Origin: Dehalococcoidia bacterium | Lineage (GTDB): Bacteria > Chloroflexota > Dehalococcoidia > SM23-28-2 > RBG-16-64-32 | Assembly: GCA_034408935.1 (NCBI GenBank) | Contig: DAOUMV010000025.1 | Coordinates: 99,593-163,592 of the forward strand | Direction of reading: 5' to 3' | DNA length: 64,000 bases | In this document: in pieces, positions 4,498 through 53,192 of the stretch | How the letters are laid out: each line of letters begins with the position of its first letter | How positions within the stretch are numbered: position 1 is the stretch's first letter | The notes under the pieces: model-generated | Seen by the model: only the letters and a program-made list of their open reading frames with translations | The model's database searches: none | What the model was told of the DNA's origin: nothing | Translations under genes and position numbers: made by a program

Positions 4498-4574
4498 GGG
4501 CGATTAGCTCAGTTGGTTAGAGCGCAGCGTTGACATCGCTGAGGTCAGTGGTTCGAGTCCACTATCGCCCACCA
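4498..4574 (+). tRNA. tRNA-Val (anticodon GAC)
   Basis: Cloverleaf folded by hand: acceptor GGGCGAT/ATCGCCC, anticodon stem CAGCG/CGCTG, loop TTGACAT, T-loop TTCGAGT, encoded CCA. Confidence 0.9.
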
Positions 4575-4760
4575 CTTCGCTTACCCCTCTTAGGCTACTA
4601 GCCGCCCGCCGTCTTCAAGAACTTGCTCTTGATTCAGCACCCGGGTTGCGCCAGAATGGAAACGGCTGCCCCGGCGGCAGCTCATCGGCTGGGGTTATTG
4701 CCGCGTACGGCAAGCTCGTGATATACTTCGCAAACCTGGGCCCTGGCCAGCGACCGTCGC

Positions 4761-4836
<76 letters not shown>

Positions 4837-4861
4837 ATAGTGAGCAACCAAGATGGAGAAA

Positions 4862-4946
4862 GGGGAAGTGTCGGAACCGGTAGACGAGCGTGATTTAGGA
4901 TCACGTGCCGAAAGGCGTGGGGGTTCGAGTCCCCCCTTCCCCACCA
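4862..4946 (+). tRNA. tRNA-Leu (anticodon TAG), class II with a long variable arm
   Basis: GGGGAAG acceptor, anticodon stem CGTGA/TCACG, loop TTTAGGA, 13-nt variable arm, T-arm GGGGG TTCGAGT CCCCC, encoded CCA. Confidence 0.85.
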
Positions 4947-7574: not shown

Positions 7575-10445
7575 CTATGCCGGTTCCCGCTGGAGGTTGA
7601 GGGCTAGGAGGCGGGATAGGATATCGGCGTCGTGGGTGTCAGGGGGCCAGCCGTAGGCGGCGAGAACGGCGGTATCGAGGGCGGCGTGGGCATTGGCGAG
7701 CCAGGTGGGGCGCTGGTTGTAGAGGTTGGTGAGGGTGCGCTTCTTCAACTCATTTTCCGGAAGCGGCAGGCCGCCGACTGGGGCCGGGTTAAGCCAGCCG
7801 TCACGGAGCTGGTTGAGTTCCCTGGCGGCTTCAGCGATGGCTTCCCTCTGCTGGTCAGTGGGCTGCGGAAAGGGGAATGTCTCAAAGCAGGTGGTCGGGG
7901 TGTAACGGACGCCGCTTTCGGATTCTCTGAGCTGAGTGCCGGTGCCCCGCGCCCACACCTCGTGGACGTGGGAGTGGAGGATGCCGAAGAAGTAGTCGTC
8001 CTCGCGGGCGAAGACGATCACAAGGTTCTCAGCAAGTGTTGCCACCGGCAGCCACGAGAACAGGCGGTGCTTCGACACCATCGAGGTTGCCAAGTAGCGC
8101 TTCAGCCCAGCAAGCGCTGATCTCATAGCTGGGCGCGGGCGGCCGTGAATCCACCAGGGGTAGTGTTCCGCGTCTACAGAGGTCGCCTTCCGCCGCATGG
8201 GTTTGACGTGCCGCTTGATGTACTCGAACGGTGCTTCGAAAAGCGCAGCTTCTTCTTCAGCCGTACCTGGCGGGAAGTCGATGATCCACGAGTCGCGTCT
8301 ACGCTGGTTCAAGTCCCTGCCGTGAACCCACGGTCGCACGACATCAGCGTTGGTGCGTTTGTGTGGGTTGGGGCTTCGTAGTAGCCGCCGCGCGACTTCG
8401 CCTGAGATATCGAAGGGTCCCACCTTGGTGATTCCCATGAAGGAGATACCCAGGTTCTCCTTCAGGCGGCGGGCCCTTGTGAGGTCTGTGCGGTGGGTGA
8501 GGTTGGGGTTGATCCCCTCGACGGGGCGGGCTCTCTCCAGGGCGCCGCGGGGATCGTCGTCAGGCGTTTCGTTCAAGAAGCGGCGGGTTTCGGAGCCGTC
8601 GTCGAAGCCGACCATGGAGACGCGGACGGCGACACCGTCCTGAATCCACTTGCGGTCCGCCTGGGCGTAGAAGATGTCGCCGGTCTGCTTGATGCGCTCA
8701 AGGACGCGGCGGTTGGCGCCGCCGCGAATGGCCTGGGTGGCTAGGAGACCGGCGCGCGCGGCGCGACCGTCCTCGATGGCGGCGCGGGCCTTCTCCAACC
8801 AGTAGCAGCAGAGGTCTGATTCGCGGGCGACGCGTCCATCCCACACGGCGAAGAGCCGCTCAACATAGTCATCGCCGAGTCCGCGCCGGAGCATCTTGCC
8901 ACCGAGGAAGGGGGGATTGCCGACGATGATGTCGACCTCGGGCCAGTCCGGCTCGCGGACCCGTTTGGGGTCGCTGTGGTCAACGATAGCGTCCATGAGG
9001 CGGACCTGATCGAGGGGTTCGAGGATGGGGTCCTCATCGCCCAACGCCATGGCGTTGCGGTGCTTCCACTGGAGGTAGCCGATCCAGATGACGACGGAGG
9101 CGAGCTCGACGGCGTAGGGGCTGATCTCGATGCCGTGGAGCTGGCGGGGATGGACGCGGGGGCGGATGTCTGTGATGTCGTGGAGGGCGGCGAAGGCTAT
9201 GACCTCCTTTTCCAGGGCCTTGAGGAGGGCGAGGGAGACGTAGAGGAAGTTGCCGGAGCCGCAGGTGGGGTCGAGCACACGGATGGAGGCGAGGTGGCTG
9301 TGGAAGCGGGCGAGAAGGCGGCGGACATGCCGCCGCTTGGTGCCTTCCGGCGTGCCCCTGACATCGGCGGAGTGGAGGTAGTCTTCGACGGCCTTCTTGA
9401 CGCCATCCCACTCGCGACGGAGGGGGGCCATGAGGACGGGCTCGACGATGAGCTCGATGTCGGCGCGGGAGGTGTAGTGGGCACCGAGCATCTTGCGCCA
9501 GGCGGGATCGACGATGCGCTCGAAGAGGGTGCCGAAGATGGAGGGCTCCACGTCGGCCCAGTTTAGGGAGTCCAACTCTCCCAGGATGAGGATCTCGTGC
9601 TTGGTGACCTCGTCCGGCACGTCATCGTCCTCGAAGAGGCGGCCGTTGAAGTGGGGTATCTGGCGCATGGAGAACTCTCCGCCGCCGTTCATGACGCCGA
9701 ACAGCTCGGAGAGATGCCTGCGGAAGCCCTTGTCGTCACCGCCGGTCCTGTGGAAGGCGACGATGTCCGAGAAGGTCTCACGAGGGAGAAGGCCGACATC
9801 AGTGGCGAACATGCAGAAGAGCACGCGGGTGATGAAACGCGCGATGCGCATGTCGTCAACTTTCCACTTGCGGAGCTCCTCGGTGATCTTTCCGAACTTC
9901 CTAGCCGCCTCTTCCGTGATCTGCTCAGTGGTCTTGCGGGGCTTGAGGTCGTCAGGGCGCTCAAAGAGGGATTTCAGCACCTGGAGGGCGGTTGGGGAGG
10001 GCGCGTCTTTAGCGGGCGCGGAGACGGTTGAGACGGAAACCGGATCGTCAGACAGGAGGTCGGCGTTTGAGAAACGATATATCCACTTTTCGGTGTTGGT
10101 CCAGTTAGTGTGGACCTCGAAGCGATCGATGTCGCAGACGACGAGAAGGGGCGGATTGCCGAGGGCCTCGCGGTAGTCGCAGACCTGCTTGTAGGCGGCG
10201 GCGAGGTCTTTGCGCTTTCCCTTGTATTCCCAGGCGAAGTGGTCCTTCAGCCAAACGTCGGCGAAGCCTTCACCATCCGGTTTGAGGGCGCCCTTCTCGA
10301 AGGCGTAGATGTCGCCGCTGGGGTCGGCTTCGTTAGGCGTCTTTTCGTTCAAGAGGCGGCAGAGGTCGATAAAGTGTTCCTGAGAGACGGAGCGCTCGCC
10401 TCCCTTGGAAGCGGCCCACTTTTGGACGAATTCGGCAGGGGTCAT
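7575..10445 (-). CDS. Type IIL/IIG restriction-modification fusion enzyme, MmeI family (endonuclease, N6-adenine methyltransferase and specificity domain in one protein)
   Basis: About 956 aa. The N-terminus matches the MmeI-like pattern (AEFVQKW...[16 protein letters not shown]) with a PD-ExK motif ([13 protein letters not shown]). MTase motif I is [13 protein letters not shown] and motif IV is IVGNPPF; a long C-terminal specificity domain follows. The start is either ATG 10445 or ATG 10499. A TATAAT lies 7 nt upstream of 10445. Confidence 0.8.
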
Positions 10446-10543
10446 CGTGCCCGAATTATAGACCGGATGCGGGCGTCGTGCAGAGGCGTAGCCCTGCAAG
10501 TATGTGTATCGTAGCTGGCCACTCCTGCTACCATAGCCCCAGC

Positions 10544-14951: not shown

Positions 14952-15222
14952 CGGTCGTGCTAGACGGGGAGCTAGCGGTGCCCTGTACCCGCAATCCGCT
15001 ATAGCGGGGTTGAACTCCCGCTCGAGGTCTGAGCTCCGCAGGGACTGCCTCTGACAAGCGGCGTTGAGGACCCGGCCCTGCGCGGCGAGGTGCCATGAAC
15101 CCCGTCAGGCCCGGAAGGGAGCAGCGGTAAGTGGTTAGCTTCGGGTGCCGTGGGCAAACCGAGTCGGAGTCGGTTGTCAGGGTAAGCCTGCGGTGCCGGA
15201 TCGACAGCGGGTGCACGACCAC
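14952..15222 (+). ncRNA. ffs: Signal recognition particle RNA, long Bacillus type with an Alu domain
   Basis: The 5' part GUGCUAGACGGGGAGCUAGCGGUGCCCUGUACCCGCAAUCCGCUAUAGCGGGG closely resembles the B. subtilis scRNA 5' domain as I remember it. The conserved helix-8 motif GUCAGGCCCGGAAGGGAGCAGC lies at 15104-15127. The 3' end GGAUCGACAGCGGGUGCACGACC matches the scRNA 3' end. A promoter TTGACA (14915-14920) plus an extended -10 lies upstream. The ends are approximate. Confidence 0.75.
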
Positions 15223-44010: not shown

Positions 44011-45981
44011 ATGCAGTACTTGCCACGTGCGATTACTTCTCTGGTGGCCCAGGGTGCCGTAGGGGGAGTAACCACACGAATTCTTCGAGGAATGAGGGCG
44101 TTAGTTGCGTTGGGAATACTCGTGGGCGTGAGCTTGCTTGCTGCGTATTCAGCGAGTGCGGACACGACTACCAATATCGGGGCGCGCACCTTTACCGAGG
44201 GCAGCAACATATGGGGAAATACCAACATGGTACCCTCCAAAGGTTTCGCCCAATCGTTCACGCTAACGTCATCAGGCGTCTTCACGGGCTTCGATCTCGT
44301 CATGCAGTATGGGAGTGGCGACGTAAGCATCGTGCACACATTTGAATGGGAGGTGCGCGACCTCACTGGCTCAGGATTGCCCGGTACAGTGCTTCGATCT
44401 GGGGACTTCACCCTCACGATGTGGCAGGCGAACGGACCTACCCCCATCCACGTCGATCTCATCACCCCGATCTCTCCTGTCACGAGTGGCGAGAAGTACG
44501 CGATCGCGCTCAAGAGGGTCCTTCCTAATCCTACCCCGGATACGTTCTTCTGGACCTTTGGCGAGGACCCCCCAACCCAAAATGGATTGCGGCCTAATCC
44601 CTACGATGACGGCGAAGCCTTCGAGGAAAACTCGCCTGATATCTGGACAGCCATGGATCCGCCGCAGGACTTCCGCATGACGGTCCACGTTAAACAATGC
44701 GTCCAGGCGCCGCCCAACATAGACCACTGGTGGCCCTTCGATGAGACCGCAGGCCTATCGGCGGCTGATATTATCGGTTTGCGCAACGGCAACACCAAAC
44801 CTGGGGCGATTGGCCTCCCTGGAAATCCCGCTTCGGTGCCCGGGAAGGTAGGCAATGCGTTCCAGTTTGATGGCAGCTCAGCTTTTGTGGAAGTCCCTGA
44901 CGGGCCTGGTATCCTTAGCTACGGAAACCCTGGGCAGGAATTTTCGATAGACGCCTGGATCAAAGTCAAGCCCGAAGATAAATCAGGTATTCTCCCTATT
45001 GTTGACAAACGAAACGAAATAGGAGGTAAAGTAGCGGGATACGAACTCTTCCTCTATGAGGGCAACCTGGGCTTCCAGTTGGCAGACGCATCAGTCAGCA
45101 ATCACGATTGCGACGGTAATCCCACTTCCGCTCCTTCCCCTACCACTTCTTGCACAAACTACGTATCTAATGCCAATGTTGCCGATGGGCTGTGGCATCA
45201 TGTAGCGGTGACAGTCGAAAGGACGGGGACATCACCTAGGGTCAGGCTCTACGTGGACGGTGCTCTCAAATTGACTGGACCGACTAGAATCCACGCGAAC
45301 AACAGCGCGGCTCTACTGATGGGGAAGAACAACCCGGCTGTCTACGCTAGTGGGCAAATCTTCAAGGGTTTGATTGACGAGTTGGAGATCTTCGGCCGCG
45401 CTCTCCCTCAGTCGGATCTCCTGTCAATCGTCAACGCCGACATCGCTGGTAAATGCAAGCCCGTGGTAAAGGACATTCACAAATATTGCATATCGGGTAC
45501 GTCTACAGGGGTCGGTTGGACATGGACAGTGATAATTGGATCAAGTGTATACAGCGGGGTTGTGCTGAACGGAGCTGTCCCCCCCGGAGGCACTGCCGTC
45601 GACCTTGCCTTTAGGTGGGTAGACAGTATGATCGTCGGGGGGGTGAATGACGTGGGGGTACCACCCAGTCAATTTTCAGAACCCCAGGCGAACTGCTTCC
45701 AAATCCCGGGGTTGCACACCCTCACAGTGGATAGCTGCACCGTCACCCATAATCCAAGCGGGTGCAGCTTCAATCCTACGGTGCATGACGTTACAAATGT
45801 CGGCGGCACGACGGAACTGCTTGTTGGCCGCTCGGACACGCCTGACACGCCTGGCAGCGCCGCGGACTCGTCCGGCGGTTCGTCGTTCCACTACGCCGCG
45901 CTTGCTGGCTCGGCGGCAGCGGCTGCGGCCGCGATGGGCGCGTGGTACGTGAGGCGGCGGTTCCGCCAGAGGCGGATCTGA
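44011..45981 (+). CDS. Secreted surface protein with a LamG/concanavalin-A-like lectin domain and a hydrophobic-basic C-terminal anchor-like tail; lower GC
   Basis: N-terminal signal peptide. The LamG-like region (DGSSAFVEVPDGPG ... LWHHVAVTVERTG ... LYVDGAL ... GLIDELEIFGRAL) follows the pattern of laminin G / pentraxin-like jellyrolls. The C-terminus is ALAGSAAAAAAAMGAWYVRRRFRQRRI. GC is about 52%. Confidence 0.65.
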   Translation: MQYLPRAITSLVAQGAVGGVTTRILRGMRALVALGILVGVSLLAAYSASADTTTNIGARTFTEGSNIWGNTNMVPSKGFAQSFTLTSSGVFTGFDLVMQYGSGDVSIVHTFEWEVRDLTGSGLPGTVLRSGDFTLTMWQANGPTPIHVDLITPISPVTSGEKYAIALKRVLPNPTPDTFFWTFGEDPPTQNGLRPNPYDDGEAFEENSPDIWTAMDPPQDFRMTVHVKQCVQAPPNIDHWWPFDETAGLSAADIIGLRNGNTKPGAIGLPGNPASVPGKVGNAFQFDGSSAFVEVPDGPGILSYGNPGQEFSIDAWIKVKPEDKSGILPIVDKRNEIGGKVAGYELFLYEGNLGFQLADASVSNHDCDGNPTSAPSPTTSCTNYVSNANVADGLWHHVAVTVERTGTSPRVRLYVDGALKLTGPTRIHANNSAALLMGKNNPAVYASGQIFKGLIDELEIFGRALPQSDLLSIVNADIAGKCKPVVKDIHKYCISGTSTGVGWTWTVIIGSSVYSGVVLNGAVPPGGTAVDLAFRWVDSMIVGGVNDVGVPPSQFSEPQANCFQIPGLHTLTVDSCTVTHNPSGCSFNPTVHDVTNVGGTTELLVGRSDTPDTPGSAADSSGGSSFHYAALAGSAAAAAAAMGAWYVRRRFRQRRI

Positions 45982-46067
45982 TGAGGCTGCGGTAGCGCCT
46001 GTCAACCGGCCATAGCGTTCGTTTGTGCGGCCGCCGGTGGAACTCCACTGGCGGTCGCATTTTCGTT

Positions 46068-46096
46068 GACGGTCAGATAGGCGCGTGCTACAATCG
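46068..46096 (+). promoter_or_regulatory. Promoter (TTGACG, 17 nt, TACAAT) with a structured leader of about 95 nt
   Basis: The leader contains the stem GAGGGCCG (46123-46130) / CGGCCCTC (46163-46170) enclosing GCCCAGCGGUGAGAGGGCAG. It precedes the small ORF and the two half-size MetE genes. Confidence 0.5.
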
Positions 46097-46192
46097 CCGG
46101 TGCTCAAGCAGCAGGCGAGACAGTTGACGAGGGCCGTTGTAGCCCAGCGGTGAGAGGGCAGCGGCCCTCGCGCCGCGATAGAGGTGGTGCAC

Positions 46193-46387
46193 ATGCGCGG
46201 TAGCTGGTTCCGTTTCGGGTTCGCGCCTCCCTTCGGCTTCTGGTTCCGCAGCGCCTGGCGCTTCCCTCGCCGCCAGGAGTACCTGCGAATGCTGGAGGAG
46301 TACCGCGATGAGCTGCAAGAGGAGCTGAACGAAGTGAAGGCGGAGATCGAGCGGCTGAAGAAGGCTGGCGAAGAAGAGAAGGACTAG
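46193..46387 (+). CDS. Small DUF5320-like protein (aromatic/Gly N-terminus plus coiled coil)
   Basis: MRGSWFRFGFAPPFGFWFRSAWRF followed by EEYRDELQEELNEVKAEIERLKKAGEEEKD. AGGTGG RBS 5 nt upstream. Confidence 0.45.
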   Translation: MRGSWFRFGFAPPFGFWFRSAWRFPRRQEYLRMLEEYRDELQEELNEVKAEIERLKKAGEEEKD

Positions 46388-46401
46388 AGGATAGACTGAG
46401 G

Positions 46402-47379
46402 ATGCGCACTACCGCCGTGGGCCACTATCCGAAGATACCCAACCGGCCGCGACCTGCCCGCCTTCGTCGGGCGATCGCCCGGCTCGATCGCGGGGAGATC
46501 ACCGTCGAGGAGCTAGCGCAGGTACAGGACGAGGTGACGATCGAGGTCATCGCCGAGCAGGTGGAGGCGGGCCTCGACATCATCACCGACGGCCAGATCC
46601 GCTGGGACGACGACCAAACGTACATCGCGCGGCGGCTGGAAGGGTTCGACATCGGAGGACTCATCCGCTACTTCGATACGAACACGTACTACCGCCAGCC
46701 CAACGTCGTTGGGCCTGTGCGCTGGCGGGAACCGATCCTGGTCCGCGACTACGAGTTCGCCGCCCGCCACAGCGAGAAGCCGGTCAAGGCGCTTATCACC
46801 GGCCCCTACACCCTGGCTGTTCTCTCCTCCGATTCTCACTACGGCGATCGCCGTCGGCTGGTGCTGGACCTGGCGGAGGCGCTCCGCCAGGAGGCACTGG
46901 CCCTGGCCGCCGCCAGCGCGACGGTGATCCAGATCAACGAGCCGGCCATCCTCCGGCACAAGGAGGATGCCCCCCTGCTCCAGGAAGCGGTCGCCACGAT
47001 TCTCGAGGGCGTTGATGTGGAGACGGCGCTCTACACCTGGTTCGGCGACGCCAACGGCATGCTGCCGCAGTTCATGGAGCTGCCCGTGGACGTCATCGGC
47101 CTCGACTTCGCTTGGGGGCCGCGCAACTGGGAGGCGCTGAAGCGCACCGTGTTCACCAAGACGCTAGGGTTCGGCATCGTGGACGCTCGCAACACCAAGA
47201 TGGAGTCCGTGGAAGACCTCGTACAACAGATACGGCGGGTCGGCGAGTTCATTCCCGCCGAGCGCCTGTACGTAAACCCCTCCTGCGGCCTGGAGTACCT
47301 GCCGCGGGAGGCGGCGTTCGACAAGCTGAAGCGCCTGGTCGAGGGCGTGCGGGCAGCCGGGATAGGCGCCGAAGTCTAG
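46402..47379 (+). CDS. Half-size cobalamin-independent methionine synthase (MetE-like, N-terminal-half type)
   Basis: 325-aa MetE/UROD-fold protein (HYPKIP ... DGQIRWDD ... NPSCGL). It lacks the His-x-Cys zinc motif present in the next gene. Confidence 0.7.
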   Translation: MRTTAVGHYPKIPNRPRPARLRRAIARLDRGEITVEELAQVQDEVTIEVIAEQVEAGLDIITDGQIRWDDDQTYIARRLEGFDIGGLIRYFDTNTYYRQPNVVGPVRWREPILVRDYEFAARHSEKPVKALITGPYTLAVLSSDSHYGDRRRLVLDLAEALRQEALALAAASATVIQINEPAILRHKEDAPLLQEAVATILEGVDVETALYTWFGDANGMLPQFMELPVDVIGLDFAWGPRNWEALKRTVFTKTLGFGIVDARNTKMESVEDLVQQIRRVGEFIPAERLYVNPSCGLEYLPREAAFDKLKRLVEGVRAAGIGAEV

Positions 47380-47387
47380 GGAGAGGG

Positions 47388-48374
47388 ATGTCGATGGGCG
47401 GCCTGCTGACCACAACCGTGGGGAGCTTCCCCAAGCCGGAATACCTGAAGCGGGCGCGCGCCGCCTTCGTCGCTGGCCGCATCGACGGGGCCAAGCTGGA
47501 CAAGCTCACTCGCCAGGCCACGGTCGAGTGCATCCGCTTGCAGGAGGATGTGGGGCTGGACATCCTCGTGCACGGCGAGATGGAGCGCGGCGACATGGTG
47601 GCCTACTTTGCCGAGCTCCTGACCGAGAGCATGGCCATCAGCGGCCTGGTCCGGTCGTACGGCAACCGCTACTACCGCAAGCCGATCATCACCGGCGAGT
47701 TGCGCTGGCAGGGCCCAATGACGGTCGAGATGTGGCGCTACGCTCAGGGCCTTACCGAGAAGCCCGTGAAAGGGATGGTAACCGGTCCCTATACGATGGT
47801 CGACTGGTCGTTCGACGAGCACTACGGCTCGCGGCGAGAGGCGGTGCTGGCCATGGCGGGGGTGGTGCATCGTGAGGCCGAGGAGCTGGTGAAGGCAGGG
47901 GCGAGGTTCGTGCAGGTGGATGAGCCAGCCGCCTCAACACGGCCGGAGGAGATGGAGCTGGTGTCGGAGGCGCTGGGGGTCGTCACTCATGGCCTCGACG
48001 TCAGGACGATCACCCATATCTGCTACGGGGATTTCGCGGCGGTATTCCATCACATCGCTAATCTGCCGGTCGACCAGCTCGACCTGGAGATGGCGAACAG
48101 CGACTACGACCTCCTGGACCTGATCCGCGAGCACAAGGACGGGTTCGACAAGGAAGTCGCCATGGGGGTCGTGGACGTCCACTCTCACGTGGTCGAGACG
48201 CTAGACGACGTGAAGGCCGGGATCAGGAAGGGTCTGGAGGTGCTCCCGCCCGAGCGCTTGTACATCGACCCCGACTGCGGGCTGAAGACCCGGACCTGGG
48301 ACGAGGCGGAGGCGAAGCTGAGGGTGATCACCCAGGCCGTGGGCGAGGTGAAGCGGGAGCTGGAGATAGCGTAG
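47388..48374 (+). CDS. Half-size cobalamin-independent methionine synthase (MetE C-terminal catalytic-half type; core MetE)
   Basis: 328 aa with GSFPKPEY, the zinc ligands H-I-C (THICYGDF), Glu, and DPDCGL. GGGAGAGGG RBS. It starts 9 nt after the previous stop. Confidence 0.75.
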   Translation: MSMGGLLTTTVGSFPKPEYLKRARAAFVAGRIDGAKLDKLTRQATVECIRLQEDVGLDILVHGEMERGDMVAYFAELLTESMAISGLVRSYGNRYYRKPIITGELRWQGPMTVEMWRYAQGLTEKPVKGMVTGPYTMVDWSFDEHYGSRREAVLAMAGVVHREAEELVKAGARFVQVDEPAASTRPEEMELVSEALGVVTHGLDVRTITHICYGDFAAVFHHIANLPVDQLDLEMANSDYDLLDLIREHKDGFDKEVAMGVVDVHSHVVETLDDVKAGIRKGLEVLPPERLYIDPDCGLKTRTWDEAEAKLRVITQAVGEVKRELEIA

Positions 48375-48412
48375 GGCAGGGCCCCAGCCCCGCGCCGGTG
48401 CCACCCGTGCCC

Positions 48413-48436
48413 AAGGTCGAGGCTGGGGCCTCGACC
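48413..48436. terminator. Bidirectional hairpin AGGTCGAGGC-TGGG-GCCTCGACCT between convergent genes (REP-like family D, copy 2)
   Basis: Perfect 10-bp stem. The core GGTCGAGGC...GCCTCGACC is the same as at 19801-19822. Confidence 0.6.
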
Positions 48437-48485
48437 TACATGTGTTGATCCGCCTACCCCAGACAGCGCCTGCGCGTACCAGGCA

Positions 48486-51350
48486 CTACGGTGTGCATAC
48501 GGACCCGAAGTACGGCGGCAACACCTTGAACACGTCCCCCAGGTTGATGAAGCCGTCCGGGAGCAGGTCTCTCCGAGGACTCCAGTCAGGGATGGTGTCA
48601 CCGTTCGTGTCGGGCACGTCTGGACTAGAGCCGAAGTACGGTGGGAGCACCTTGAACACGTCCGCCAGGTTGATCACCATGCTGTCGTCGAAGTCCGGGG
48701 GCCAGCACGCCGGGCCGCAGGCGTCAGCAGGATCTGTCCCTATGAGTGTTTCGTCATAGTCGTTGAAGCCATCGGCATCGCAGTCAGAGTCACCAGGGCA
48801 AGGGTCGCAGGCGTCACCAAGGCCCTCGCCATCGTCATCTTCCTGCCCCGCGTTAGGAGTGGACGGGCAGTTGTCGCCTATATCGGACACCGCATCGCCG
48901 TCGGAGTCACACACCGGATCCGCCCCGTCCGGTCGTCCGTCACCATCGTTGTCCACGGTGTCGACGCAATCGTCTGCACCGTTTAGTCCACTAGTGTTTG
49001 GGGACGGGCCTTCCGTATCGCAGGTGTCGCCGGTCTCGTCCTCGTCGACATCTTCCTGACCCGGATTTTCCGTGGCCCGACAATTGTCGACAGCATCGAT
49101 CACACCGTCGCCGTCGGAATCGTCGCAGTGGTCGCCCACGCCATCGCCATCCCAGTCCTCCTGACCAGCGTTGGCTATGTCCGGGCAGTTGTCATCGATG
49201 TCCGCCACCAAGTCGACGTCGGGGTCGTCACAATGGTCGCCGGTGGTGTTCGGGTGGACATCGTCCTCCTGGCCTGGGTTAGCGACATCGGGGCAATTGT
49301 CGACAGTGTTGGGCAAGCCGTCGCGGTCGGAGTCCGCCGGGCAGGTCGTACCCACAGCCACCCCTCCACCCTTGACACCCACGACCGGGATTGGATCACC
49401 GGCTATCGAGTTAGGGCCGTCCCCGTCGTAGATCGCCAGATCTGGAACACCATCAGGGCCGCCCGCGGGGCCGGGGATGATGAGAGGGCTAACGCCTGTC
49501 CCAACAGCCTCTACGGTAATCCTTGCCAGTACGCCATCGCCGTCCTCATGGTTAGCGGGTGGTGGGGGGTTGTTCGTCCCATCTGTCGCCGCGACCGTGA
49601 AGGAACCGTTGGTGTCGGGCACTCCTTCGCTCGCGCTCAGGAAGCCCGCGCCCCCGCCGCTAGCGATGCGCGAGATGATCGTAACGTCGTCGGGCGGGCT
49701 CGAGCCCGCCGCGTCAACGTCGGTAACGCCGGTGACCTTGATGATCGCAGGGTCATAGTCCATATCGACTTGGTAGCCAGCGATCATATCCACGGGGTCT
49801 ACCCGTTCTGCGACTAGATCGAAGGTGTGGGTGTCTCCAACCTCCGCAACCTCCGCACAGCCCTGGACGCTCCCGACATAGTCATCATCGTTTCCCATAG
49901 GATTGGCGTCGATCGCCACTAGGCCCACCTCTCCTGGCACGGGCGTGGGGAGAGTGCACGACGAGCCGAACACCGGCGGCAGCACCTTGATGAGATCAAG
50001 GATGTTGATCACACCGTCTGGAACGAGGTCTCGCCGTTGAGTATGGTCGGGATCACAGGTGGTGGAGCTGAAGCCGGGTGGACACAATACCTGGAGCACG
50101 TCCCCGAAGTTGATCACCTGGTTGTCGTCGAGATCCGGCGGCCAGGCGTTGGCGCCGCAGTCTAGGTCGGGGTCGGTGCCGATGAAGGCTTCGTCGCAAT
50201 CCGTGTACGTGTCGCCATCGTAATCGGCGCAGGGCGTGGGTGTTGGTGTTGGGCTAGGTGTTGGAGTGGGAGAAGGCGTCGGGGCGACGCACGGCTCGCC
50301 CACGGAGATGGCGGCGACTCCCAGGCTCTCCACCGGGATCGGGTCGCCAGGTAGATCGTTGGCGCCGCTGCCGTCGACGATAATGAGATCGGGTATGCCA
50401 TCCGCACCGCCGGCCGCGCCGGGAATGGTGAGAGGACTGGTGCCGTTGGCGACGCCGGTGACGGTGAACCTGGCCAGGACGCCGTCGCCCGACTCGTGGT
50501 GGGCGGGAGGAGGAGACGGGGCGGCGGTGCCGTCGACGCCCACAAACGTGACGGAGTTGGGCTTGGCCGTAAGGTCGGTGTCGGCGACGATGAAGCCTGC
50601 GCCGCCGCCGCTGCCGATGCGGGAGAGGATGCTGACGTCGTTGGGGTTGTTGCTGCCGGCGGGGTCGACAACGATGAGGTCGCACAGCTCCTCGTCGATG
50701 CGCGGGCCGGCACCGCAGTCGGGATCAGCGCGGTCAATCCCGGTGTCGCCGTCGTTGTCGACGCCGTCCGAGCACTGGTTGTCGCCTGGGGAGCCGACGG
50801 AGCCGTCCTCGTGCTGGTCGCCGTCGTTGTCGGTGAAGTCTTGCCAATAGCCAGCCTGCGCGCCGGTGATGTCGTTGTAGCAGTCCTCGTCAAAGCGGCC
50901 GTCGCTGTCGTCGTCGATGCCTATGCCGATCACGGCGGGGTCGTAGTCGATATCGACCTGGTAGCCGGAGATCCTGTCAGCCGGGTCCACCCCCTGCACC
51001 CACAGGTCGACGACAACGGTCTGGCCGACGTCAAGCTCAACACAGGAGTCGGGAGCCGAGACGGTGGTGTCGTCATTGTCAAGGTAGAGCCCTCTCTGAC
51101 AGTCCGGGTCGGCACCGTCGGTCAGGCCGTCCGCGTCGTTGTCGACGTTGTCGTAGCACTGGTTAGTGGCGGGAGCCTTTTGGGTGCCGTCCTCGCCCTG
51201 GTCACCGTTGTCGTCGACGTTGGTGTCGATGGCGACCTCGGTGACAACCTGAGGAACGGCCTGGGCAGGGAGACCCCAGTGGCGAAGGCCAATCACAACC
51301 AGGGCCACAACCATCCCCACCACGAGCGAACCGACCGCAAAGTGTCTCAT
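48486..51350 (-). CDS. Giant secreted/surface repeat protein: thrombospondin type-3-like Ca-binding repeats, dockerin-like repeats, and two internal cohesin-like repeats of about 130 aa
   Basis: Signal anchor. Repeats DNCPxxxNxxQxDxDxDGxGDxCD (TSP3-like), QCxDxVDNDxDGxxDxxDPDC, dockerin-like DGxINxxDxxKVLPPxFGS. Two paralogous blocks (SRIGSGGGAGF... and SRIASGGGAGF...). PT-rich linkers. Promoter TTGACA (rc of 51413-51418) and RBS AAGGGAGG. Confidence 0.8.
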   Translation of the reverse strand: MRHFAVGSLVVGMVVALVVIGLRHWGLPAQAVPQVVTEVAIDTNVDDNGDQGEDGTQKAPATNQCYDNVDNDADGLTDGADPDCQRGLYLDNDDTTVSAPDSCVELDVGQTVVVDLWVQGVDPADRISGYQVDIDYDPAVIGIGIDDDSDGRFDEDCYNDITGAQAGYWQDFTDNDGDQHEDGSVGSPGDNQCSDGVDNDGDTGIDRADPDCGAGPRIDEELCDLIVVDPAGSNNPNDVSILSRIGSGGGAGFIVADTDLTAKPNSVTFVGVDGTAAPSPPPAHHESGDGVLARFTVTGVANGTSPLTIPGAAGGADGIPDLIIVDGSGANDLPGDPIPVESLGVAAISVGEPCVAPTPSPTPTPSPTPTPTPCADYDGDTYTDCDEAFIGTDPDLDCGANAWPPDLDDNQVINFGDVLQVLCPPGFSSTTCDPDHTQRRDLVPDGVINILDLIKVLPPVFGSSCTLPTPVPGEVGLVAIDANPMGNDDDYVGSVQGCAEVAEVGDTHTFDLVAERVDPVDMIAGYQVDMDYDPAIIKVTGVTDVDAAGSSPPDDVTIISRIASGGGAGFLSASEGVPDTNGSFTVAATDGTNNPPPPANHEDGDGVLARITVEAVGTGVSPLIIPGPAGGPDGVPDLAIYDGDGPNSIAGDPIPVVGVKGGGVAVGTTCPADSDRDGLPNTVDNCPDVANPGQEDDVHPNTTGDHCDDPDVDLVADIDDNCPDIANAGQEDWDGDGVGDHCDDSDGDGVIDAVDNCRATENPGQEDVDEDETGDTCDTEGPSPNTSGLNGADDCVDTVDNDGDGRPDGADPVCDSDGDAVSDIGDNCPSTPNAGQEDDDGEGLGDACDPCPGDSDCDADGFNDYDETLIGTDPADACGPACWPPDFDDSMVINLADVFKVLPPYFGSSPDVPDTNGDTIPDWSPRRDLLPDGFINLGDVFKVLPPYFGSVCTP

Positions 51351-51454
51351 TCCTTAACACCTCCCTTGCGGGCCAAGCCCGGCGTGCCACATTTAGCACT
51401 TTTGACCTAACCTGTCAAGCTTGTGCCTGGGGGAGCACCTGGAATCTCGTGGCG

Positions 51455-51484
51455 TTGACCGGCCGTGGCCGCGCCTGCTACAAT
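51455..51484 (+). promoter_or_regulatory. Promoter TTGACC, 18 nt, TACAAT
   Basis: It is followed by hairpins (51517-51537, 51541-51563) and a mini-element copy (51590-51626) just before the GTG start of the next gene. Confidence 0.5.
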
Positions 51485-51589
51485 CGGGGCGAAGTTAACG
51501 CGCACGTTAGAGTGACGCCTGCCTGCCGGTAGGCAGGGGCGAGGGCCAAAGGATCGGCCCTCGTCGTTTGTAAGCCGAACTCCGCTCGC

Positions 51590-51626
51590 CCTTCGACAGG
51601 CTCAGGACGAACGGAGAGAAGTGGAG
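51590..51626. repeat. Palindromic mini-element family C copy, plus a rearranged double copy at 51694-51750
   Basis: CTCCGCTCGCCCTTCGACAGGCTCAGGACGAACGGAG with 13-bp imperfect terminal inverted repeats. A second, composite copy is CCCCTTCGACAGGCCCTGCGACGGACTCTTCGACGCTGCTCAGGACAGGCTCAGGAC. Confidence 0.6.
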
Positions 51627-53192
51627 CAGGCTCTGGTCAAACAGCGGATGCCGAGCCCGGCAGGGGAAGTCCCAACTGAGGGTGGCCCGTTGGCCCCTTC
51701 GACAGGCCCTGCGACGGACTCTTCGACGCTGCTCAGGACAGGCTCAGGACATGGCCTGGACTACCTCTTCCACCCCCGCTCGGTGGCCATAGCTGGCGTA
51801 TCGCCGCCCCAGATCGGCTTCGGCGGCGTCGGTGCCGGATTCGTCATGGCCCTCCAAGACATGGAGTTCCCGGCCATATACCCCGTCAACCCCAAGCACC
51901 AGGAGATCGAGGGGCTGAAATGCTACCCCAGCCTCTTCGACATCGAGGGGCCCGTCGACCACGTCATCTCCAGCGTCCCCGCGCGCATCGTCCCGTCGCT
52001 GGTCGACGACTGCATCGCCAAGGGGGTGAAGTGCATCCACTTCTTCACCGCCGGCTTCAGCGAGACGGGTGAAGAGGAGAAGGCGGAGCTGGAGGCGCAG
52101 GTCGTGCAGCGAGCGGTCGAGGCCGGGATCCGCGTCATAGGCCCCAACTGCATGGGATTCTACGTGCCCGCCAGCAGGCTTGCCTTCATGCCGGGGTTCC
52201 CCAGGGAGCCGGGGCCGGTGGCTTTCATCTCCCAGAGCGGCGGCAACGCCACGGAGATGGTGTACACCTCGGTGCCGCGGGGAATCCGATACTCCAAGGT
52301 CGTGAGCTACGGCAACGCCGCCGATATCGATGAGGGCGAGCTGCTGGACTACCTGACGGAAGACCCGGAAAGCGAGGTCATCTGCGCCTACATCGAAGGC
52401 GTCAAGGACGGGCGCCACTTTTTCGAGGCGATGCGGAGGGCCGCTGCGGTCAAGCCCGTCATCGTCCTCAAGGGGGGACGAACGGAGGCGGGCACGAGGG
52501 CCGTGCACTCGCACACGGGGTCGCTAGCCGGCTCCATGGACGTGTTCGATGCCCTGCTGCGGCAGGTGGGCGCGGTGCGGGCCGACAGCGTGGAGGAGAT
52601 GGCGGACCTGGCGATGGCTTTCGTCTCCGTGGGCCTGGCGGACAGCGGGTTCGGCGCCCTTACCGGCCCCGGCGTCGTAGTCGTGGGCGGCGGCGGCGGC
52701 TTCAGCGTGTTCGCCGCCGACGAACTGGACGAGGCCGGCCTGCGCTGTCCCGTCCTGCCGGAGACGACCCAGCAGGCCCTACGGGAGTTTACGCCCGTGG
52801 CCGGCACCAGCGTGCGCAACCCGGTAGATTCCATCATGGTCTTCGATCCGTCCAAGCTGAAGAGTACCATCGAGGTGGTAGGCTCGGCGGAGAACATCGA
52901 CGCCGTGATGTTCCACACCAACTTCAACTTCGGGGGATGGCGACGCTCGGCCGCCTGGTTCGACCCCGAGATCTATCGGCAGAAGGCGGCTGAGGCGCTC
53001 GTAGAGGCCCGCCAGGCCTGCGGCAAGCCGCTCGTTCTGGTGATGAGACCGGCCCTGGACGTGCAGGCGATGGAGCAGACGCTGGCGTTCCTGGAGCTGT
53101 GCTGGGAGGCCCACATCCCCGTATTCCCGACAATCCCCCGGGCGGCCAACGCCCTGGCGAAAGTACTGCACTGGCGCCAGAACCGGCGCTAG
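51621..53192 (+). CDS. Acetyl-CoA synthetase (ADP-forming) / CoA-binding succinyl-CoA-synthetase-like protein
   Basis: LDYLFHPRSVAIAGVS CoA-binding start, IGPNCMGF, the phosphohistidine segment HTGSLAG and an ATP-grasp C-terminal domain. The annotated N-terminal 45 aa are encoded by mini-element copies, so the true start is uncertain. Confidence 0.7.
   Translation: MEQALVKQRMPSPAGEVPTEGGPLAPSTGPATDSSTLLRTGSGHGLDYLFHPRSVAIAGVSPPQIGFGGVGAGFVMALQDMEFPAIYPVNPKHQEIEGLKCYPSLFDIEGPVDHVISSVPARIVPSLVDDCIAKGVKCIHFFTAGFSETGEEEKAELEAQVVQRAVEAGIRVIGPNCMGFYVPASRLAFMPGFPREPGPVAFISQSGGNATEMVYTSVPRGIRYSKVVSYGNAADIDEGELLDYLTEDPESEVICAYIEGVKDGRHFFEAMRRAAAVKPVIVLKGGRTEAGTRAVHSHTGSLAGSMDVFDALLRQVGAVRADSVEEMADLAMAFVSVGLADSGFGALTGPGVVVVGGGGGFSVFAADELDEAGLRCPVLPETTQQALREFTPVAGTSVRNPVDSIMVFDPSKLKSTIEVVGSAENIDAVMFHTNFNFGGWRRSAAWFDPEIYRQKAAEALVEARQACGKPLVLVMRPALDVQAMEQTLAFLELCWEAHIPVFPTIPRAANALAKVLHWRQNRR

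Follow-up and report, generated by a model that had tools for sequence, protein, structure and literature searches.

A stretch of 64,000 nucleotides from a Dehalococcoidia bacterium (Chloroflexota; contig DAOUMV010000025.1 of assembly GCA_034408935.1, positions 99,593 to 163,592; the whole stretch is called the window here) carries a small open reading frame (S) followed by two half-size genes (A, B), which resemble the two barrels of the cobalamin-independent methionine synthase MetE. This raises the question whether A and B together make up a methionine synthase in two pieces, or whether B works as a synthase of its own that is fed by a corrinoid or another methyl donor. To our minds, S-A-B, which is one operon, encodes a split cobalamin-independent methionine synthase, a reading that we would give a probability of about 0.72. 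This agrees with a first-pass annotation of the sequence, which took the two genes for the N and C barrels of MetE made as separate proteins from one operon, and whose described features were all found where it had placed them. The transcription unit has a terminator-like hairpin of a LamG-domain gene (46025-46060) on its upstream side and a convergent cohesin/thrombospondin-type-3-repeat (TSP3) gene on the minus strand (48486-51350) on its downstream side, and it is made up as follows, with A and B in different reading frames and a stop codon between them.

46066-46094, plus strand: sigma-70-type promoter, TTGACG-17-TACAAT with a TG extension
46101-46192, plus strand: 5' leader of about 92 nt, whose 3' end carries the Shine-Dalgarno (SD) sequence GAGGTGG (46181-46187) of S
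46128-46170, plus strand: conserved leader hairpin, found in the minimum-free-energy and centroid structures
46193-46387, plus strand: S, 64 amino acids (aa; open reading frame called at 46184/46193-46387)
46402-47379, plus strand: A, 325 aa, beginning 14 nt past S
47388-48374, plus strand: B, 328 aa, with the SD sequence GGAGAGGG within the 8-nt gap after the A stop

Sequence comparison identifies B as the likely catalytic subunit, a predicted (beta-alpha)8 barrel with a zinc/homocysteine site. Its whole length aligns to residues 437-763, the C-terminal barrel, of Thermotoga maritima MetE (237 bits), and it scores 285.4 bits against the Pfam model Meth_synt_2 versus 48.6 bits against Meth_synt_1. 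With 399.6 bits, just under the cut-off of 406, B is a near-member of PRK04326, the family that names split-MetE catalytic subunits and to which the catalytic subunit of the haloarchaeon Halobellus limi scores 505 bits; against PRK00957, B reaches 178 bits (cut-off 258). The His-Cys-Glu-Cys zinc ligands noted in the first-pass annotation are indeed complete (His210, Cys212, Glu234, Cys297), and the homocysteine-binding residues, whose roles we take from Price et al. (PMC7857596), are present as Ser13, Glu64 and Asp178. Of the five elements that determine folate binding in the C barrel of T. maritima MetE, four are kept as well: Trp539 corresponds to Trp140, Asp-Met-Val467 to D69-M70-V71, Arg493 to Arg94 and Arg496 to Arg97.

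A, in turn, appears from its residue pattern to correspond, as a protein of its own, to the N-terminal barrel of fused MetE, with zinc and homocysteine binding lost. The model that describes it best, as is also the case for B, is the NCBIfam 'methionine synthase' PRK04326 (293 bits; cut-off 406). Where A had been called devoid of zinc ligands, this holds for three of the four positions, which are substituted by Tyr211, Trp213 and Asp235, and not for the last one, where Cys295 is retained. In the N barrel of T. maritima MetE, the site is disabled by replacement of His618 by Phe and of Cys620 by Tyr232, which is stacked on the next aromatic residue, together with Asp253 for Glu642 and Asn for Asp in LVNEPA, with Cys309 being kept (PMC539065). 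A matches this pattern through Tyr211, Trp213-Phe214, Asp235, Asn179 in IQINEPA and Cys295, and thus carries the N-terminal barrel signature of Pejchal & Ludwig 2005. Consistent with this, when A and B are aligned with the two barrels of each of two fused MetE proteins, alongside which the Halobellus limi subunits were read, A sides with the N halves on five characters: a one-residue insertion (RYFDTNTYY in A versus RSYG-NRYY); the motif T[YW]F[GD]D (TWFGD in A), i.e. an aromatic residue at the Cys position and then Phe; Asp in place of the Glu ligand; G-x-x-D-[AG]-R-N (DARNT in A) versus D-V-H; and C/S-x-L-x-Y-[LV]-P (LEYLP in A) versus C-G-L-K-T-R. Since the indel and the motifs are common to fused N barrels and the haloarchaeal N-like subunit, an origin of A as an independent recent duplicate of B is unlikely.

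The N-barrel folate contacts of T. maritima MetE (Arg15, Lys18, Lys104) fall on or beside R20, R22 and R89 of A in local alignments that are each weak, yet consistent with the multiple alignment. In 62 relatives, R22 and R89 do not vary at all and R20 is conserved to 90% or more. Relatives of A number 3721 among 1.84 billion cluster representatives and come from several bacterial phyla and from archaea; within the best 150, the ligand set is missing in 116 of the 122 that are full-size, and nearly all have the FD[TN]N-type motif. One may ask, however, whether A and B are thiol or other methyltransferases outside methionine synthesis, e.g. of the MtaA/UROD type that serves corrinoid pathways, an option that the first-pass annotation had named among those that would overturn its proposal. 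Two homologues of A bear the NCBI name 'methylcobamide--CoM methyltransferase', and A itself weakly matches URO-D with 23.7 bits, which is under the cut-off of 23.9. Yet when the AlphaFold2 (AF2) model of A (pLDDT 92, pTM 0.90) was searched with Foldseek, a structural comparison of the kind that the annotation had called for, MetE chains came out best with a TM score of 0.85 as against 0.55-0.62 for UROD/MtaA-type barrels. Considering, in addition, that all three homocysteine-binding residues are kept in B and that a homocysteine S-methyltransferase/methylenetetrahydrofolate reductase (MTHFR) fusion occurs as a neighbour of the pair (see below), we regard membership of A and B in this other group as extremely unlikely.

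The closest public relatives are metagenome-assembled genomes (MAGs) of Dehalococcoidia/Chloroflexota, and closed MAG chromosomes with the pair include CP070630.1, OY969584.1, OY762959.1 and OZ252225.1. A collection with one genome per species yielded 309 matching stretches. Among 80 species loci from this collection, B lies directly 3' of A in 79, the lone exception stopping at a contig edge. Stop codon of A and start codon of B overlap as ATGA, the usual sign of translational coupling, in 37 out of 67 complete pairs. In sequence, too, the partners are close: A and B of the window are 36% identical and within-genome identities range from 28 to 40% (median 34%), whereas in two fused MetE proteins, the N half shares only 16-19% with the C half. 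With about 35% identity on one side and 16-19% on the other, the split pair may be seen as a much less diverged version of the duplication behind MetE. Finally, in five of the most divergent loci, some of which are binned as archaea, Gemmatimonadota or unclassified bacteria, the pair is adjoined on its own strand by a fused S-methyl_trans+MTHFR gene (YitJ-like), which is upstream in four loci and downstream in one.

L036, 257-2131, same strand as the pair: S-methyl_trans+MTHFR fusion
L067, 2063-3868, same strand as the pair: S-methyl_trans+MTHFR fusion
L070, 1999-3819, same strand as the pair: S-methyl_trans+MTHFR fusion
L072, 1930-3867, same strand as the pair: S-methyl_trans+MTHFR fusion
L046, 6002-7834, same strand as the pair: S-methyl_trans+MTHFR fusion

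This adjacency of a homocysteine S-methyltransferase/MTHFR fusion ties the pair to methionine metabolism and to an enzyme that makes 5-methyl-tetrahydrofolate (5-methyl-THF). It also bears on the other scenario of the first-pass annotation, in which B alone would be a 'core' synthase (MesA/MesB-like) fed by a corrinoid protein and A an inactive paralogue with, for example, a regulatory, chaperone-like or other-donor-binding role. Such a scenario can draw on the half size of B, which is devoid of the beta4-alpha4 insertion with Glu583 just like single-domain archaeal enzymes, on an overall score that puts A nearer to catalytic barrels than to N barrels, and on Dehalococcoides, a member of the same class, which uses core MetE with methylcobalamin (PMC7005905). 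Core MetE/MesB of Dehalococcoides mccartyi and MesA of methanogens share with B a half-size catalytic barrel with a zinc site, but they operate with no N-like partner and on methylcobalamin or corrinoid proteins (PMC7005905, PMC7857596). B, on the other hand, has Glu64 (HGEME) at the position of E. coli Glu484 where MesA and MesC carry Gln, keeps the equivalents of Trp539, DMV, Arg493 and Arg496, scores far higher with PRK04326 than with PRK00957, and always comes with A, in which the N-barrel folate-contact residues are kept. Strict adjacency, translational coupling and the MTHFR fusion neighbours add to this, and no corrinoid or Wood-Ljungdahl genes (including acsC/acsD) turned up within the 64-kb window or in the genes that most commonly adjoin the pair. 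We therefore consider it unlikely that B is a corrinoid-dependent core enzyme. Among families of this kind, MesB is less than 30% identical to the others and linked to acsCD, and zinc-less MesB-like proteins of Chloroflexales form a lineage distinct from A (PMC7857596). As for MesD/MesX, a DUF1852 (MesX) gene, which would be expected beside the pair, was found neither in the window nor among the 25 commonest Pfam families of flanking genes, and the match to 3RPD is 111 bits only.

How does the locus compare with MetE systems already described? Canonical fused MetE (T. maritima 1T7L/1XPG, E. coli) follows the same two-barrel logic, with the His/Cys/Glu/Cys zinc ligands and Trp539, DMV, Arg493 and Arg496 in the C barrel and with Arg15, Lys18 and Lys104, whose equivalents A has, in the N barrel. 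Unlike the two polypeptides here, which have no linker, it is a single chain of about 750 aa with a 35-residue linker, and it possesses a beta4-alpha4 insertion (Glu583) and a 16-residue beta8-alpha8 extension that are absent from B and A, respectively. In line with this, A and B stay far below the cut-off of the fused-MetE model TIGR01371 (123.6 and 293.5 bits for the two open reading frames versus 929.95). The closer precedent is 'split MetE', which had been put forward on the basis of mostly archaeal genomes: Price et al. 2021 defined it as two half-size genes, usually adjacent, which they found mainly in Halobacteria and Thermoprotei as well as in one bacterium, with none listed for Chloroflexi in their survey table (PMC7857596). 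The Pyrococcus furiosus proteins PF1268 and PF1269 form a complex, and methyl-THF or another methyl-pterin is the predicted donor (PMC7857596). A text search of the literature for 'split MetE' brought up no later study on bacterial examples. To our knowledge, split MetE has never been characterised biochemically.

As an archaeal example, we used the pair on the Halobellus limi plasmid NZ_CP031312 (DV707_RS14755/14760; our locus L101), which like the window has the N-like gene first and the catalytic gene second and in which the two overlap by 4 nt, as they do in the ATGA pairs above. Its catalytic subunit matches B with 241 bits and 39% identity and, like B, has the full zinc/homocysteine site; the N-like partners of both are without the full site and have the motifs FD[TN]N, TY[WF]G and [AG][RQ]NT. 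Counterparts of the A motifs in the haloarchaeal N-like subunit are RYYDNNNFY, HTYWG, DGQNT and ELFYLP, yet its first ligand position is still His and its last one is Thr, unlike in A. Seen against the definition of split MetE, B is no longer than 400 aa, matches Meth_synt_2 and has the zinc/homocysteine residues, A is likewise within 400 aa (325 aa) and exceeds the Meth_synt_1 cut-off of 27 with 87.9 bits, and the two are adjacent. For the original threshold of at least 200 bits (phmmer) between the catalytic part and P. furiosus PF1269, two stand-ins were used here, the 241 bits of B against the Halobellus limi catalytic subunit and its 399.6 bits with PRK04326. As gene order, residue patterns and, in many of the related loci, the overlap match those of defined split MetE, we file the locus as a bacterial member of this kind. 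Thus, of the two possibilities that the first-pass annotation had left side by side, a heterodimeric MetE is the better one: it matches the split MetE proposed earlier (PMC7857596), with A showing N-barrel signatures (PMC539065).

There are differences from archaeal split MetE, too. The hosts are bacteria (Chloroflexota/Dehalococcoidia MAGs), A is far closer to its partner (28-40%) and scores higher with Meth_synt_2 than with Meth_synt_1, and the operon has S as an additional small gene as well as the conserved leader hairpin. Moreover, the haloarchaeal pair is found among methanopterin-type one-carbon genes, whereas five loci here adjoin MTHFR. In L101 (1-3921), it lies directly downstream of genes for a 5,10-methylenetetrahydromethanopterin reductase-like protein, a DUF447 protein and a protein of the beta-ribofuranosylaminobenzene 5'-phosphate synthase family, and with such methanopterin-type genes upstream, a methyl-pterin donor fits Halobellus limi.

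Several points weigh against a split MetE at this locus. A scores higher against the C-domain model than against the N-domain model (Meth_synt_2 149.7 versus Meth_synt_1 87.9 bits) and hence would fail the operational filter of Price et al., which asks for the reverse order, albeit a filter that its authors describe as giving false negatives (e.g. AMET1_0515) and that misses partners matching both Pfam models (PMC7857596). A is also without the 16-residue beta8-alpha8 extension seen in fused N barrels, and the fifth folate determinant, the pterin-binding Glu583, sits in the very beta4-alpha4 insertion that B does not have, as is likewise the case in single-domain archaeal enzymes. With both of these elements missing, interface and pterin site must differ in detail from those of fused MetE, so that use of another pterin or another donor is possible. 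Finally, metF, folate and corrinoid genes, or other methionine genes, were not found within the 64-kb window.

If A and B do form a split MetE, the following mechanism may be envisaged, in which the pairing of A with B, the nature of the methyl donor and what S and the hairpin do are all inferred. B would bind zinc through His210, Cys212, Glu234 and Cys297 and activate homocysteine, while A would dock face to face on B and shut the cleft that holds the methyl-pterin, most likely a 5-methyl-THF polyglutamate. Basic residues for the glutamate tail and for the pterin O4 would be supplied by A, and the heterodimer would pass the methyl group directly to homocysteine. Translational coupling is expected to keep A and B at 1:1. 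Transcription from the strong and conserved promoter would run through the terminator-like leader hairpin, which may attenuate transcription or stabilise the mRNA and gives no sign of ligand sensing.

The first gene of the operon, S, is a real gene. Its start is most likely the ATG at 46193, given that orthologues begin with MRGRWF and that GAGGTGG precedes it. There are 99 homologous clusters, all of short proteins (about 55-90 aa), and a dN/dS of 0.02-0.2 indicates purifying selection on S. Wherever its context was inspected, S stands directly upstream of A or one gene away, while the genes upstream of S vary (NuoF, sigma-70/DnaG, iron repressor, acetyltransferase). AF2 predicts one long helix (residues 27-63) behind an Arg/aromatic-rich N-terminus of 26 residues that is modelled with low confidence. 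The description of S as 'DUF5320-like' is right as far as a similarity exists; with 17.9 bits (E=0.007), however, S remains under the 27-bit gathering cut-off of DUF5320 (PF17253), and among its relatives 25 of 38 give weak matches (best E 0.0037), none of them over the cut-off, with generic coiled-coil families matching too. S is present in only about 12 of 80 loci; stops or frameshifts interrupt it in L008, L018, L020 and L022, and in L005-L007 no more than a C-terminal remnant is left. It is hence dispensable. Taken together, S is a clade-specific, dispensable accessory protein, for which an assembly or tethering role is speculation on our part. We also considered S as an attenuation leader peptide and rejected this, as the hairpin comes before S, just one internal Met codon is present in S and purifying selection acts on the protein.

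Two kinds of rearrangement around S were seen in relatives. Just upstream of A in L005 (1866-2078), L006 and L007, a deletion has taken out the hairpin and joined the promoter to what is left of S, its final ~20 codons (…EVKTEIERL…), which makes these loci (A 78-79% identical) a natural operon variant without S and hairpin. In four other relatives, a gene for an F420H2-dependent quinone reductase family protein (PF04075, ~160 aa) is found between S and A on the same strand.

L004, 3504-3998, same strand as S and A: PF04075 gene
L010, 3515-3997, same strand as S and A: PF04075 gene
L017, 3533-4000, same strand as S and A: PF04075 gene
L028, 3409-3912, same strand as S and A: PF04075 gene

Just two sigma-70-like sites occur across 45900-51700; one of them is the operon promoter, which predicts a transcription start at about 46101. 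The pattern TTGAC-N15-17-TGCTAnAnT is kept in 51 out of 86 loci, where it precedes S or A. In the leader, a long-range stem had been noticed before and is confirmed here: GAGGGCCG (46129-46136) forms base pairs with CGGCCCTC (46162-46169), and C46128-G46170 is the closing pair. As such, the predicted leader transcript (46101-46200) folds no more stably than its shuffles (z = -1.26, 27 of 200 shuffles equal), an earlier z of -2.8 having come from a stretch that included promoter DNA. The hairpin stands out above chance because of its conservation in relatives, not because of its folding energy. A near-invariant stem (C)GAGGGYCG/CGRCCCUC(G) follows the promoter in at least 27 loci by regular expression and in about 35 by a covariance model, in loci down to 55% identity in A and irrespective of whether S or A is the first gene. 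The hairpin is terminator-like in most relatives. Most of the loci have a U-rich tract after it (GUUCUGUGU and similar), whereas the window's clade has a longer loop and GCGCCGCGAUAGAGG instead; the hairpin of the window shows a long loop and no U tract. Covariance-model scores are much higher on the plus than on the minus strand and a U-G wobble is found in many stems; both speak for action as RNA rather than as a DNA operator or palindrome. In the alignment, paired cells make up 95%, the stem sequence hardly varies and covariation is minimal; with so little variation, a covariation test has little power and RNA-level function is neither proved nor disproved by it.

Does the leader sense methionine or S-adenosylmethionine (SAM), as a riboswitch or ligand-sensing attenuator (46101-46192), as had been suggested from its sequence? 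In favour of this, the hairpin is kept in ~35 loci with a U-rich tract after most, which is the layout of an expression platform, and the operon carries a methionine gene. However, the stretch between transcription start and hairpin is variable in sequence and in length (6-45 nt, with 6 nt in L040), only the stem is conserved and hardly covaries, and the U tract is missing in the window. Rfam 15 gave no relevant match for 45900-46500 at E<=10 (SAM-I to VI, SAM/SAH, cobalamin, THF, T-box and others), and no riboswitch reached the Rfam gathering score in the whole window or in 16 related loci, in which only signal recognition particle (SRP) RNA, tRNAs and tmRNA were found; this search, which the first-pass annotation had recommended, thus did not assign the leader to an unrelated family either. 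A pattern scan of metagenomes for the hairpin returned 10 matches, mostly ordinary terminators past stop codons, and revealed no regulon, and the same hairpin, with a promoter of its own, precedes an unrelated acetate-CoA-ligase-like gene (see below). Hence a ligand-sensing leader seems very unlikely to us, and the hairpin is best described as a conserved terminator-like element of the 5' untranslated region, which may act as attenuator or mRNA stabiliser. A pseudoknot between the leader loop and the SD sequence was also tried and not retained, the complementarity being there in some loci only.

The gene in question, acetate-CoA-ligase-alpha-like (open reading frame 51621-53192; TIGR02717 353 bits, below cut-off), makes up the next operon in the window and follows B directly in 19 censused loci. 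Within 51455-51584, it has its own conserved promoter (51455-51484) and the same GAGGGCC...GGCCCTC hairpin (51541-51562), a combination that recurs before the CoA-ligase-like gene in nine loci (L001, L004, L005, L007, L008, L010, L026, L034, L085). In addition, a 20-nt palindrome, CCTGCCTGCCGGNAGGCAGG, for which zero occurrences are expected by chance in the window, is inserted in leaders. The leader concerned is that of the CoA-ligase-like gene (acd) for the window, L004 and L010, and that of metE for L017. The palindrome may represent a mobile element of small size or a palindromic repeat.

Window, 51518-51537: CCTGCCTGCCGGNAGGCAGG palindrome
L004, 6135-6154: CCTGCCTGCCGGNAGGCAGG palindrome
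L010, 7705-7724: CCTGCCTGCCGGNAGGCAGG palindrome
L017, 3255-3274: CCTGCCTGCCGGNAGGCAGG palindrome
L047, 1172-1191: CCTGCCTGCCGGNAGGCAGG palindrome

Two large genes of secreted type flank the operon, one LamG/ConA-like (44011-45981, plus strand) and the other with cohesin and TSP3 repeats (48486-51350, minus strand). Syntenic relatives have neither of the two: S comes directly after NuoF in L084, and the CoA-ligase gene directly after B in L001 and L085. They look like insertions, one on each side of the operon. The remainder of the window is of housekeeping character, with genes for threonyl-tRNA synthetase (ThrRS), LepA, KsgA, SMC, FtsY, RNase III, NuoE/F-like proteins, MutL and MutS. Amid these lies a type IIL restriction-modification enzyme of the MmeI family (7575-10499, minus strand) with MmeI_N, helicase spacer, methyltransferase and target recognition (TRD) domains, and Rfam identifies three tRNA genes and the bacterial large SRP RNA (205 bits) at 4498-4943 and 14955-15218, all of them ordinary features.

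The current picture of methionine synthesis is left unchanged by this locus; rather, the taxonomic range of split MetE becomes wider and two small accessories, S and the leader hairpin, are added to it. What is new here, i.e. the phylogenetic breadth in Chloroflexota, the small divergence between the subunits, the S gene and the shared leader hairpin, is useful and not surprising. A bolder proposal, that the Chloroflexota form is more than an archaeal split MetE in another place, strikes us as rather unlikely. If it were true, S would be a dedicated third component, which uses its long helix and its disordered N-terminus, rich in Arg and aromatic residues, to tether or assemble A and B, both devoid of the interface extensions of fused MetE; the invariant terminator-like hairpin of the metE and acetate-CoA-ligase-like operons would be recognised by a regulator of antitermination or attenuation that has yet to be described; and the A-B pair, with its ~35% identity, would be a surviving intermediate from before the fusion that gave rise to MetE. 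Short of this, the pair may still serve as a less diverged model for how the double barrel of MetE arose by duplication. In practical terms, our assignment can be used in pathway reconstruction tools, e.g. GapMind, and corrects the misannotation of A ('methylcobamide--CoM methyltransferase' or generic MetE). For a large and mostly uncultured bacterial lineage, split MetE would be the conserved methionine-synthase locus, and as for the B12 dependence of environmental Chloroflexota, it would render their methionine synthesis B12-independent.

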